A stretch of DNA of 64,000 bases from Candidatus Latescibacterota bacterium (GTDB taxonomy: Bacteria > Latescibacterota > UBA2968 > GCA-2709665). Made by a program: the position numbers and the translations under genes. The notes under the pieces were generated by a model. It was not told where the DNA came from, did not search any database, and worked only from the letters and a program-made list of their open reading frames with translations. The stretch lies in contig CBDCOX010000002.1 of assembly GCA_965219995.1 (NCBI GenBank), forward strand, positions 320,001 through 384,000, in the 5' to 3' direction. This document shows positions 3 through 5,120 of this stretch, in pieces; the stretch's first letter is position 1, and every line of letters begins with the position of its first letter.

Positions 3-335
3 GGCGTGGTGGAGCAGGCAACGGACCAGGAACTGGCGGATGCGGCTGCTCGGGCGGATCGAACCGGGTTGTTTTCGTGTCCGCATACGGGAGTGGCCTT
101 TGCGGCGCTGTTCAAGCTGGTCGAACGAGGCGTCATTCGAAAAGATGAGCGGGTCGTGGTCATATCCACCGCGCATGGACTGAAATTCACCGAGTTCAAG
201 ATCGGGTACCATCAGGCGCAGCTGGCATCGTTCGACGTAGACCCGACCCATGCGAATCTGCCCGTGGAGTTGCCGGCGGAATACGGACCGGTTCGGGACC
301 GGATCTTTCGCACGCTTGATCTGAACGGTGGTTGA
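3..335 (+). CDS. thrC: threonine synthase, C-terminal part (5' truncated by window), plant-type
   Basis: [23 protein letters not shown] motifs of fold-type II PLP threonine synthases; closely resembles the plant TS C-terminus. Confidence 0.88.
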
Positions 336-360
336 CAGAGATGTAAGAATTGGTTACATT
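332..360 (+). promoter_or_regulatory. sigma70-type promoter for the metB leader
   Basis: TTGACA(332-337)-N17-TACATT(355-360); the -35 overlaps the thrC TGA stop. Confidence 0.7.
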
Positions 361-377
361 GGTTGCCCATGTTCAGC

Positions 378-428
378 GTAGTGGTGATTTGAGGCATATT
401 GCAGCCACTATAAAGAAATCGCTAAAAA
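378..428 (+). ncRNA. SAM-II (SAM_alpha-type) riboswitch aptamer
   Basis: GTAGTGG-TGATTTG...TTGCAG-CCACTAT-AAAGAAATCGCTAAA: P1 378-384/405-411, pseudoknot TGATTT/AAATCG, terminal CTAAA; directly upstream of a Met-biosynthesis gene. Confidence 0.85.
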
Positions 429-468
429 GCTGATGACCGGTACGATCGATGCCTGCGTATTCAGGTTC

Positions 469-499
469 TCTGGGGCTTTTTAGCTTCAGATTTTTTTTT
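469..499 (+). terminator. intrinsic terminator, riboswitch expression platform
   Basis: Stem TCTGGGGCT(469-477)/AGCTTCAGA(482-490) with 2 G-U pairs, then T9 (491-499). Confidence 0.75.
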
Positions 500-517: not shown

Positions 518-1711
518 ATGAAAAAAAGCCCATCGACGGATGGCGACTGCAGTTCCACCCGTGCGGTCCACGCCGGAGAAAAGGGCGGTCATTGGGGCCA
601 TTCCCTCACCGTCCCGATCGCGCAAACGTCGACCTACGTGTTCGAGAATACGGAGGCGGTGGACGATTTCGTGTCCGGGCGATCGCCCCGCCTCGACTAC
701 GGGCGCTACGGTAACCCGACCCAGCAGATTGCGGAGCGTAAACTGGCCGAGCTCGAGGGAGGCGATGCGGCGCTGTTGTTTTCGTCCGGCATGAGCGCCG
801 TAACAACGACGCTTCTTGGCATGTTGTCCACGGGTCACCACGCCGTGATTGCGGACGACTGCTATCGAAAGACCGCTCAGTTCTGCGAACAGGTGCTGAA
901 AAAGTTCGGAATCGCCACAACCTTTGTACCAGCGGGTGACTATGAGCGGTTGGCTTCGGCCATGCAGGAGAATACGAGGGTCGTGATTGCGGAGTCTCCG
1001 ACCAATCCGCATCTGAACGTGATGGACCTGGAAAGGGTTGTTCCCATCGCAAGGTCAAACCGTGCGAAGGTCGTAATAGACAGCACGTTTGCCACACCGT
1101 TCAACCAGCGTCCCCTCGAGTTCGGCGTCGACCTGGTCATTCACAGCGCAACCAAGTACCTGGGGGGCCATAACGACCTGATTGCAGGCGTTGTAATCGG
1201 CCCCGAGCCCCTGGTATCGGCTATAAAGGACTATCGAGGTATCCTGGGCGGGGTGATCGACCCCCACTGTGCCTATCTGCTGATCAGAGGCATCAAGACA
1301 TTTCCATTGAGGATGGCGCGTCAGAACGAAACGGCGCTGGCGCTCGCCCGCTTTCTGGAAGGGAACGTCAAGGTGCGCCAGGTATACTATCCCGGTCTGG
1401 AGAACCACCCGCACCACGGGGTCGCGCGGGAACAAATGCGTGGGTACGGCGGTGTGGTGAGTTTCGACCTCGATGCGGATCTGGGCGGAACCATGGCGTT
1501 CCTGGATCGCCTGAAGGTCCCGTGCATCGGGGCGAGCCTGGGCGGCGTGGAGAGTATCGTCTCCCATCCGTCAACCATTTCCTACTATGAAATGGCGCGG
1601 GAAGACCGGATCGCCGTCGGGATCAAAGACGAACTGGTACGCTATTCCGTTGGTGTCGAGGACGCGAAAGACCTGATCGAAGACATGGAACGGGCCCTCG
1701 AGGCCATTTAA
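518..1711 (+). CDS. metB: cystathionine gamma-synthase (Cys/Met PLP enzyme), plant-like
   Basis: YGRYGNPT, DCYRKT, ESPTNP, HSATKYLGGHND (PLP Lys), SLGGVES; SD GGAGGAGG before ATG 518. Confidence 0.85.
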   Translation: MKKSPSTDGDCSSTRAVHAGEKGGHWGHSLTVPIAQTSTYVFENTEAVDDFVSGRSPRLDYGRYGNPTQQIAERKLAELEGGDAALLFSSGMSAVTTTLLGMLSTGHHAVIADDCYRKTAQFCEQVLKKFGIATTFVPAGDYERLASAMQENTRVVIAESPTNPHLNVMDLERVVPIARSNRAKVVIDSTFATPFNQRPLEFGVDLVIHSATKYLGGHNDLIAGVVIGPEPLVSAIKDYRGILGGVIDPHCAYLLIRGIKTFPLRMARQNETALALARFLEGNVKVRQVYYPGLENHPHHGVAREQMRGYGGVVSFDLDADLGGTMAFLDRLKVPCIGASLGGVESIVSHPSTISYYEMAREDRIAVGIKDELVRYSVGVEDAKDLIEDMERALEAI

Positions 1712-3815: not shown

Positions 3816-3901
3816 GGGGAGGTACCCAAGCGGTCAACGGGGGCAGACTGTAAATCTGTTGGCTGACGCCTTCGGTGGTTCGAATCCGCCCCTCCCCACC
3901 A
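3816..3901 (+). tRNA. tRNA-Tyr(GTA)
   Basis: GGGGAGG/CCTCCCC acceptor, CTGTAAA anticodon loop, long variable arm, GTTCGAATC, encoded CCA. Confidence 0.97.
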
Positions 3902-4631: not shown

Positions 4632-4708
4632 GCGGGAATAGCTCAGTTGGCTAGAGCGTCAGCCTTCCAAGCTGAATGTCGCGGGTTCGAGTCCCGTTTC
4701 CCGCTCCA
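4632..4708 (+). tRNA. tRNA-Gly(TCC)
   Basis: GCGGGAA/TTCCCGC acceptor, TTCCAA anticodon loop, GTTCGAGTC, CCA. Confidence 0.97.
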
Positions 4709-4762: not shown

Positions 4763-4838
4763 GCCCATGTAGCTCAGTCGGTAGAGCACCTCCTTGGTAA
4801 GGAGGAGGTCACCGGTTCGAGTCCGGTCGTGGGCTCCA
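4763..4838 (+). tRNA. tRNA-Thr(GGT)
   Basis: GCCCATG/CGTGGGC acceptor, TTGGTAA loop, GTTCGAGTC, CCA. Confidence 0.97.
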
Positions 4839-4860: not shown

Positions 4861-5013
4861 ATGCCCAGAGATCTGATTACATTGGCATGCGCCGACTGCG
4901 CGCGCCGGAATTATACGACGAACAAGAATCGGCGATTACACCCGGACCGCGTCGAATTCAAGAAATATTGCAGGTTCTGTCGTAAGCATACCCTGCACCG
5001 GGAGACTCGCTGA
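4861..5013 (+). CDS. rpmG: 50S ribosomal protein L33 (Zn-binding type)
   Basis: Translated by hand (not in ORF track): [50 protein letters not shown]. Confidence 0.95.
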
Positions 5014-5044
5014 AATTTCATGAATCACTGCAGATTTTGGGGTT

Positions 5045-5120
5045 AGGGCAGTAGCTCAATTGGTAGAGCACCGGTCTCCAAAACCGGTGGTTGCGGGTTC
5101 GATTCCTGCCTGCCCTGCCA
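5045..5120 (+). tRNA. tRNA-Trp(CCA)
   Basis: AGGGCAG/CTGCCCT acceptor, CTCCAAA loop, GTTCGATTC, CCA; canonical position before secE. Confidence 0.97.

Follow-up and report, generated by a model that had tools for sequence, protein, structure and literature searches.

A probable SAM-dependent transcriptional OFF switch of the SAM-II class, with a conserved antiterminator, upstream of a cystathionine gamma-synthase-like gene in Latescibacterota

Introduction

In transcriptional preQ1-I riboswitches, the 3' tail of a small H-type pseudoknot is held either in the ligand-bound pseudoknot or in an antiterminator that precedes an intrinsic terminator. In SAM-II riboswitches, a GAUUUG segment in loop L1 and a GCUAAA tail build the ligand-binding triple helix. 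SAM-II is usually taught through its translational metX representative. An earlier note on the locus analysed here stated that SAM-II usually acts by hiding the Shine-Dalgarno (SD) sequence, a view that reflects the structural literature on metX (PMC10907184) but is contradicted by the primary surveys, which describe SAM-II aptamers as often having a terminator downstream (Corbino et al., 2005, PMC1273637; Barrick and Breaker, 2007, PMC2258182). In view of these surveys, transcriptional SAM-II control is not unusual.

The transcriptional mode has been predicted since 2005 and, in the reports considered here, its support is only indirect and comes from metZ of Sinorhizobium meliloti. For the SAM-II element of metZ, transcription termination upon SAM binding was predicted. 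A small RNA, RZ, was detected at this gene; it is approximately 100 nt long and builds up in the rich medium TY, a high-SAM condition (Scheuer et al., 2022, PMC9373788). With terminators after SAM-II published in 2005 and 2007 and the metZ case in addition, presenting a clean transcriptional SAM-II as a novelty, as the earlier note did, was an overstatement.

The present analysis concerns the leader of a gene for a Cys/Met-metabolism PLP enzyme in a 64,000-nt stretch of a Candidatus Latescibacterota genome (hereafter, the window). The nearest public relatives of the window genes were found in Latescibacterota metagenome-assembled genomes (MAGs), with 90% protein identity at the best locus, and the description of the host as a member of a poorly studied lineage was fair.

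Materials and Methods

The window was scanned with cmscan against Rfam 15 (4227 families) at gathering thresholds. All 68 RF00521 matches of related genomes, comprising 66 above the cut-off and two below it, were collected, and their 54 distinct aptamers were aligned. Since the Rfam RF00521 model contains helix P1 only, the pseudoknot helix P2 was examined on these relatives. The proposed P2 has eight pairs, which join positions 393-395, 397, and 399-402 to positions 421-422, 424-425, 427, and 429-431.

In the analysis of antiterminators, the tail was defined as the 12 nt xGCUAAAAAGxx. Each leader was examined for an uninterrupted stretch of 8 nt or more complementary to the tail (G-U pairs allowed), located in the next 130 nt and ending no more than 12 nt upstream of a T-run. 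This combination of tail complement and T-run, alongside a separate RNAfold-based scan, was adopted because a strict perfect-stem definition of terminators missed bulged stems in relatives.

Results

Aptamer, pseudoknot, and flanking signals

The scan yielded a match to RF00521 (SAM_alpha, SAM-II) with a score of 45.5 bits, versus a gathering score of 36, and an E-value of 5e-07. The match spanned the entire model (positions 1-79 of 79; Table 1), and this check with the SAM_alpha covariance model bore out the SAM-II assignment in the earlier note. The limits given there for the aptamer, 378-428, were slightly too narrow, with P1 at 380-385/404-409 and the 3' strand of P2 running to position 431. 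The P1 loop contained the conserved GAUUUG of L1 as well as the 5' strand of P2 (393-395, 397, 399-402). Both the U-rich L1 segment GAUUUG and the A-rich tail GCUAAA agreed with the Rfam consensus and were invariant, or nearly so, in relatives.

Rfam content of the window consisted of this single riboswitch and four tRNAs, the latter forming a gene cluster on the + strand (3816-3898, 4632-4705, 4763-4835, and 5045-5117). Because no riboswitch family except RF00521 reached its gathering score in the window, the SAM-II long-loop model, which the earlier note had also proposed for a search, had no match there. In the 5.44-Mb genome of the host (two contigs), the leader was the one match to RF00521, and a search of the same genome for SAM-I (RF00162) found none.

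Across the 54 distinct aptamers, P1 and P2 together showed 98.9% paired cells, a value somewhat biased in favour of the P2 scheme, which was drawn by eye from the same sequences and the Rfam consensus. Four pairs in these helices had changed on both sides, and the covariation score was reached by none of 500 shuffles. As a control, the 3' partners of P2 were slid by 1-3 columns, upon which pairing was only 23-61%. The six pairs of P1 were formed in 99.4% of cells over the 54 distinct sequences; its outermost pair varied (AU in 45, CG in four, GU in two, GC in one, and UG in one) and the remaining ones hardly did. P2 pairs were 97-100% formed in relatives, and three of the four pairs of the distal P2 helix, including those of positions 430 and 431, displayed compensatory changes (GC/GU/AU). 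Aptamer columns that were invariant across relatives numbered 22. Since covariation was seen and pairing dropped when the partners were slid, 421-431 was assigned to the 3' strand of P2; as judged by this comparison, the tail through position 431 belongs to P2. Taken as a member of its class, the leader is most likely a genuine SAM-II riboswitch, with SAM sensing as a prediction from its sequence.

A promoter-like sequence that is absent from the earlier note ended 19 nt upstream of P1 (Table 1). Transcription from it would start at approximately position 367, a few bases upstream of the aptamer. A comparable TTGAC-like/TAnnnT pair, with a spacing of 16-18 nt, was located 8-35 nt upstream of P1 in 63 of the 68 related leaders. 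The threonine synthase gene thrC lay directly upstream, with its stop codon 45 nt before P1, and a scan of positions 1-2000 found no terminator-like site between 335 and 469. As the earlier note had read, an SD sequence (GGAGGAGG) was present at about 508-515, with an ATG at 518. These two signals lay outside both the aptamer and the terminator, with the SD 77 nt beyond position 431, where P2 ends. Alignments of same-genus orthologues by tblastn began at residue 1 of the ORF starting at 518.

Table 1. Coordinates of sequence features in and around the leader, in positions of the window. Functional names of the switching elements are predictions.
Feature	Position	Strand	Description or basis
thrC (threonine synthase), 3' end	3-335	+	TIGR00260 on full ORF L001:119-1462, 216.2 bits vs cut-off 167.1
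Sigma-70-like promoter, TTGACA-17-TACATT	332-360	+	10/12 consensus positions
Rfam SAM_alpha match	371-446	+	cmscan; functional aptamer approximately 380-431
P1 hairpin	380-409	+	Stem 380-385/404-409, loop 386-403; from Rfam alignment
Switching sequence GCUAAAAAGCU	421-431	+	P2 3' strand or antiterminator 5' arm
Anti-sequence GGCUUUUUAGC	474-484	+	Antiterminator 3' arm
Intrinsic terminator	469-499	+	Hairpin 469-490 and U9 at 491-499
Shine-Dalgarno GGAGGAGG and start codon ATG	508-515; 518-520	+	Direct sequence reading
Regulated gene, Cys/Met-metabolism PLP enzyme, CGS-like	518-1711	+	397 aa; PF01053, 441 bits

An inverted repeat linking the aptamer to a terminator

The sequences GCTAAAAAGC (421-430) and GCTTTTTAGC (475-484) were exact reverse complements, as claimed previously, and no other inverted repeat of 7 nt or longer occurred in the region 360-520. 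On neither strand of the window did the 10-mer of 421-430 have a second copy, with shuffles predicting 0.10 copies. By inclusion of a U431-G474 pair, the antiterminator could be extended to 11 pairs. Its 3' arm, 474-484, overlapped the terminator loop together with the adjoining inner parts of both stem arms.

The terminator proposed in the earlier note was likewise recovered. Its hairpin comprised nine pairs, of which two were G-U, closed by a 4-nt loop and followed by T9; the stem was thus modest. A folding energy of -11.8 kcal/mol was calculated for this hairpin (z -3.57), and one of 200 shuffles was as stable. The element was situated between the aptamer and the start codon, with the end of T9 at 18 nt upstream of the ATG. 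In 1.5 Mb of the host genome, terminator-like sites numbered 234 by a loose definition, compared with 95-116 in dinucleotide shuffles (2.3-fold), and 45 by a strict definition, compared with 4-9 (approximately 6.6-fold). Judging from this enrichment, the host genome appears to use intrinsic terminators.

Since the same bases, 421-431, take part in P2 and are complementary to 474-484, P2 and the antiterminator are mutually exclusive. These sequence relationships supported an expression platform in which an antiterminator shares nucleotides with the aptamer helix P2, the latter being predicted to be stabilised by the ligand.

Conservation of the arrangement in relatives

Among 61 related genomes, taken as far as the class level, 57 had matches to RF00521, and together these 57 contributed the 68 leaders. 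A tail complement combined with a T-run was found in 60 of these 68 leaders (57 genomes) and in 13 of the 15 genera with matches; as related genomes are non-independent samples, these counts describe conservation and do not provide a test statistic. The arrangement was absent from leaders L010, L029, L130, L132, L135, L137, L139, and L148. Four of these eight preceded CGS-like genes and belonged to genera g8 and g9, the tail variant of g9 being AAAAGGCC.

As a control, the tail was compared with the terminator-like hairpins of the host genome, of which 787 were collected over its two strands. The distribution of the longest tail complement peaked at 4, and at least eight tail-complement pairs were reached by the terminator of the window (11 pairs) and by one of the 786 others (eight pairs). 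The motif CTTTTT[AG]G occurred in one of the 787 hairpins, which was the terminator of the window.

Among 33 distinct combinations of tail and anti-sequence, the antiterminator positions that were not anchored by the search were paired in 28 (G), 28 (C), and 31 (position +1) combinations. Tail position +1 switched between T-A, T-G, and C-G. One step outside the helix, at either end, pairing decreased to three and four of the 33 combinations. Few true compensatory changes were seen in the antiterminator core because the aptamer fixes the core of the tail. In the sequences compared, the antiterminator arrangement is conserved across relatives.

In the sister genus g6 (e.g., L016, L017, and L019), two tandem hairpins, each with a T-run, preceded the start codon in 20 of 21 leaders, approximately 20-80 nt past the aptamer tail. 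The complete anti-sequence, GGCTTTTTAGT, was present in the first of these terminators, and a shortened version, GCTTTT, in the second. Unlike g6, the genus of the window had a single terminator.

Folding energies and traces of expression

The terminator formed in a constrained fold in which the bound state was approximated by blocking the P1 loop and the tail. Without constraints, the minimum free energy (MFE) structure of 371-505 was the antiterminator (-36.8 kcal/mol), in an extended form in which the U-tract paired with AAAGAAAUC. For 371-500, the MFE structure (-36.6 kcal/mol) combined the terminator with a non-native aptamer helix, 382-390/416-424, and the forced antiterminator state had an energy of -35.2 kcal/mol. 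Calculated in this manner, the terminator and antiterminator states are within approximately 1.5 kcal/mol of each other, and their ranking shifts with the chosen ends; the outcome would therefore have to be kinetic. The leader as a whole was not unusually stable (z -1.26, equalled by 24 of 200 shuffles). Because folding energies were indecisive, conservation was taken as the main basis for interpretation.

Helix 382-390/416-424, which was proposed by RNAfold, involves bases that are fixed by the aptamer, and its one variable position, 418, was not kept paired in other genera on our reading of the alignment. It was treated as an artefact of the model or a transient fold of the apo form.

Contigs of a relative with 90-96% identity were found in four marine metatranscriptome runs from one study. 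A 512-nt contig from an RNA library mapped to 354-861 and extended from the aptamer through the terminator into the beginning of the gene. This contig fits read-through and is uninformative about regulation, with the qualification that such contigs carry neither RNA ends nor expression levels and that DNA may have been present in the library.

The regulated gene and its surroundings

Family models placed the regulated protein among Cys/Met-metabolism PLP enzymes. Its best NCBIfam match was PRK08249, "CGS family", with 396 bits versus a cut-off of 600, and a methionine gamma-lyase model scored nearly the same (391 bits). As all NCBIfam equivalog matches were below their cut-offs, the name metB used in the earlier note is unproven. 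The closest solved structure was cystathionine gamma-synthase 1i41/1qgn, with 392.6 bits versus 321.5 for the next structure; we take this protein to be the tobacco enzyme, which uses O-phosphohomoserine. In the host genome (98.6% complete), no members of the MetA or MetX families were detected, and a second PF01053 paralogue was present elsewhere. The similarity to 1i41/1qgn, the adjacency of thrC, and the absence of detected MetA and MetX hint at a plant-like route to methionine through O-phosphohomoserine; a plant-like cystathionine gamma-synthase acting on this substrate would be a reasonable reading of the sequence data. Nothing bearing on the regulated enzyme was found in a search of the literature on O-phosphohomoserine use in bacteria.

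An orthologue of the regulated gene was located downstream of 55 of the 68 related RF00521 matches. Some relatives had two or three SAM-II matches, and in these the extra aptamer preceded a gene whose start resembled L-threonine 3-dehydrogenase (tdh). Ten such leaders were identified (L006, L010, L111, L135, L139, L143, L145, and L146, as well as L005 and L112), and seven of them, all but L010, L135, and L139, had a tail complement with a T-run. The three ORFs that were scanned at these leaders all matched tdh models: that of L135 scored 425.9 bits versus a cut-off of 380, and those of L145 and L146, which were incomplete, scored below the cut-offs. We know of no association between SAM riboswitches and tdh.

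Approximately 25 nt downstream of the regulated gene, an ORF at 1735-2511 encoded a DUF4013 protein (54.1 bits). No terminator-like site was found between the two genes in the scan of positions 1-2000. The DUF4013 gene may be co-transcribed and co-regulated with the CGS-like gene.

Distribution of SAM-II in Latescibacterota and other phyla

In a sample of Latescibacterota, 60 of 151 genomes had a match to RF00521, and these genomes were confined to part of one class. By family, matches occurred in 17 of 18 genomes of f1, 30 of 30 of f2, two of two of f4, and 10 of 64 of f3; none was found among the 36 genomes of ten other Latescibacterota families. Two genomes of f3 each contained a pair of matches on the same strand. 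In G103, these were located at C175:4777-4853 and 4942-5018, with starts 165 nt apart, and in G135 at C159:132-212 and 470-548, with starts 338 nt apart and scores just below the cut-off. Both pairs may represent tandem SAM-II aptamers.

SAM-II was also sought in other phyla by applying a custom model (R1) to the regions upstream of the regulated gene's 80 nearest homologues. Nine of the 80 matched, of which six were from Latescibacterota, two from Tectimicrobiota/Entotheonella, and one from an unclassified bacterium. The match of the unclassified bacterium had the same GCTTTTTAG terminator. The two from Tectimicrobiota/Entotheonella (L048 and L052) were SAM-II-like aptamers with R1 scores of 53.4 and 49.7 bits. 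They lay approximately 150 nt upstream of the orthologue, in leaders that showed no visible hairpin with a T-run.

Discussion

The leader analysed here is interpreted as a SAM-dependent transcriptional OFF switch that acts by competition between a terminator and an antiterminator, a reading to which we assign a probability of roughly 85% from comparative sequence data. It has the same outline as the mechanism in the earlier note, in which SAM locks the tail, 475-484 is left free to fold into the terminator, and expression of the gene stops. Comparative evidence supported that mechanism, because covariation places 421-431 in P2 and a complement of the tail is kept inside the terminator in 60 of 68 leaders. 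An OFF switch would also fit a biosynthetic role of the regulated enzyme. What this interpretation infers from these patterns is that SAM binds, where transcription starts, and that termination depends on the ligand.

Under the proposed mechanism, transcription would proceed from the promoter at 332-360, starting near 367, and P1 would form first. At high SAM concentrations, the tail would pair with positions 393-402 of the P1 loop in a ligand-stabilised pseudoknot P2, upon which 469-490 would fold as a terminator. An RNA of approximately 130 nt would be released at the U-tract and the CGS-like gene would be left untranscribed. At low SAM concentrations, the free tail would instead pair with the emerging anti-sequence (11 pairs), thereby sequestering the inner half of the terminator and allowing polymerase to read through into the gene. 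The 43-nt spacer between tail and anti-sequence would allow time for SAM binding, and the switch, if real, would be kinetic.

An improbable alternative, and the one that survives best, is that the terminator is a constitutive, SAM-independent attenuator that yields a stable riboswitch small RNA, with SAM altering RNA stability or the RNA acting in trans. An idea of this type has been discussed for the metA terminator of S. meliloti and the small RNAs RA1, RA2, and RZ (PMC9373788). The near-equal energies of the two states in the present leader, and the terminator state as MFE structure of 371-500, are consistent with it. A constitutive attenuator would have no reason, however, to maintain a complement of the P2 tail in its 5' arm and loop, which 60 of 68 leaders keep and which was found in one of 786 other host hairpins. 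Pairing was moreover kept at flanking positions that are free of constraint by the aptamer.

Translational control as in metX, in which the pseudoknot would hide the ribosome-binding site and the hairpin with its U-run would be incidental, is considered very improbable. Precedent is in its favour: reviews place SAM-II among translational switches of the "direct occlusion" type (PMC10907184), and an SD is stated to be under control of the metA SAM-II element of S. meliloti (PMC9373788). In the window, by contrast, the SD is 77 nt past the end of P2 and not within the aptamer, and it takes no part in the pairing of 421-430 with 475-484, the only inverted repeat of 7 nt or longer between 360 and 520. 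Across genera, it was the terminator and the anti-sequence that were kept, and not an anti-SD. A third explanation, that the aptamer match is a decayed relic and the complementarity a coincidence arising from the A/T-richness of the terminator loop, might draw on a score just 9.5 bits over the cut-off and on A5/T5 cores of low complexity, but is strongly disfavoured by 22 invariant aptamer columns, by covariation of P1 and P2 over 54 distinct sequences, by matches in 57 of 61 related genomes that almost always precede the same gene (51 + 4 of 68 CGS-like), and by an expectation of 0.10 occurrences of the 10-mer per 64 kb.

Beyond the switch itself, it is possible, and in our estimate rather doubtful, that SAM-II in this clade attenuates an unusual regulon composed of a plant-type cystathionine gamma-synthase that uses O-phosphohomoserine and follows thrC, together with tdh in sister genera. 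If true, SAM would gate the branch point between threonine and methionine, which in plants is gated by SAM through other means, and control of tdh would couple the sensing of SAM with threonine as a source of one-carbon units.

A literature search that combined "Latescibacter" with riboswitch gave nothing on a SAM riboswitch, as judged by its listings. As far as this search goes, the new elements are the occurrence of SAM-II in Latescibacterota and an antiterminator that is both explicit and conserved. The results extend the SAM-II class to Latescibacterota and leave knowledge of riboswitch mechanisms unchanged. With a length of approximately 130 nt and a conserved antiterminator of 10-11 bp, the leader would be a handy model for termination decisions by H-type pseudoknots.

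In its proposed mechanism, the leader is analogous to the transcriptional preQ1-I riboswitch, from which it differs in ligand and aptamer family. With the original alpha-proteobacterial metA/SAM-II element, it shares the fold of P1 and pseudoknot P2 (PMC1273637; PMC2258182) and a near-consensus -35/-10 promoter a few nucleotides before P1 (PMC1273637). The P2a helix of the window is shorter, having three base pairs (GGC/GCU) compared with the GGCC-type helix of the Rfam consensus. The metX SAM-II riboswitch from the Sargasso Sea metagenome (PDB 2QWY) is similarly an H-type pseudoknot, with SAM in P2 (PMC10907184; PMC9373788). It is translational, with its SD within P2, whereas the SD in the window is 77 nt downstream with a terminator in between.

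In S. meliloti metZ, as in the window, a SAM-II aptamer is followed by a Rho-independent terminator upstream of a methionine gene of the Cys/Met PLP family (PMC9373788). The hosts differ, being alphaproteobacterial in one case and a member of Latescibacterota in the other. The same source also contains data on mRNA stabilisation by the riboswitch in S. meliloti (PMC9373788). The RZ RNA of metZ, at approximately 100 nt, has the size expected for termination (PMC9373788), and its predicted counterpart in the window would be a terminated RNA of approximately 130 nt.
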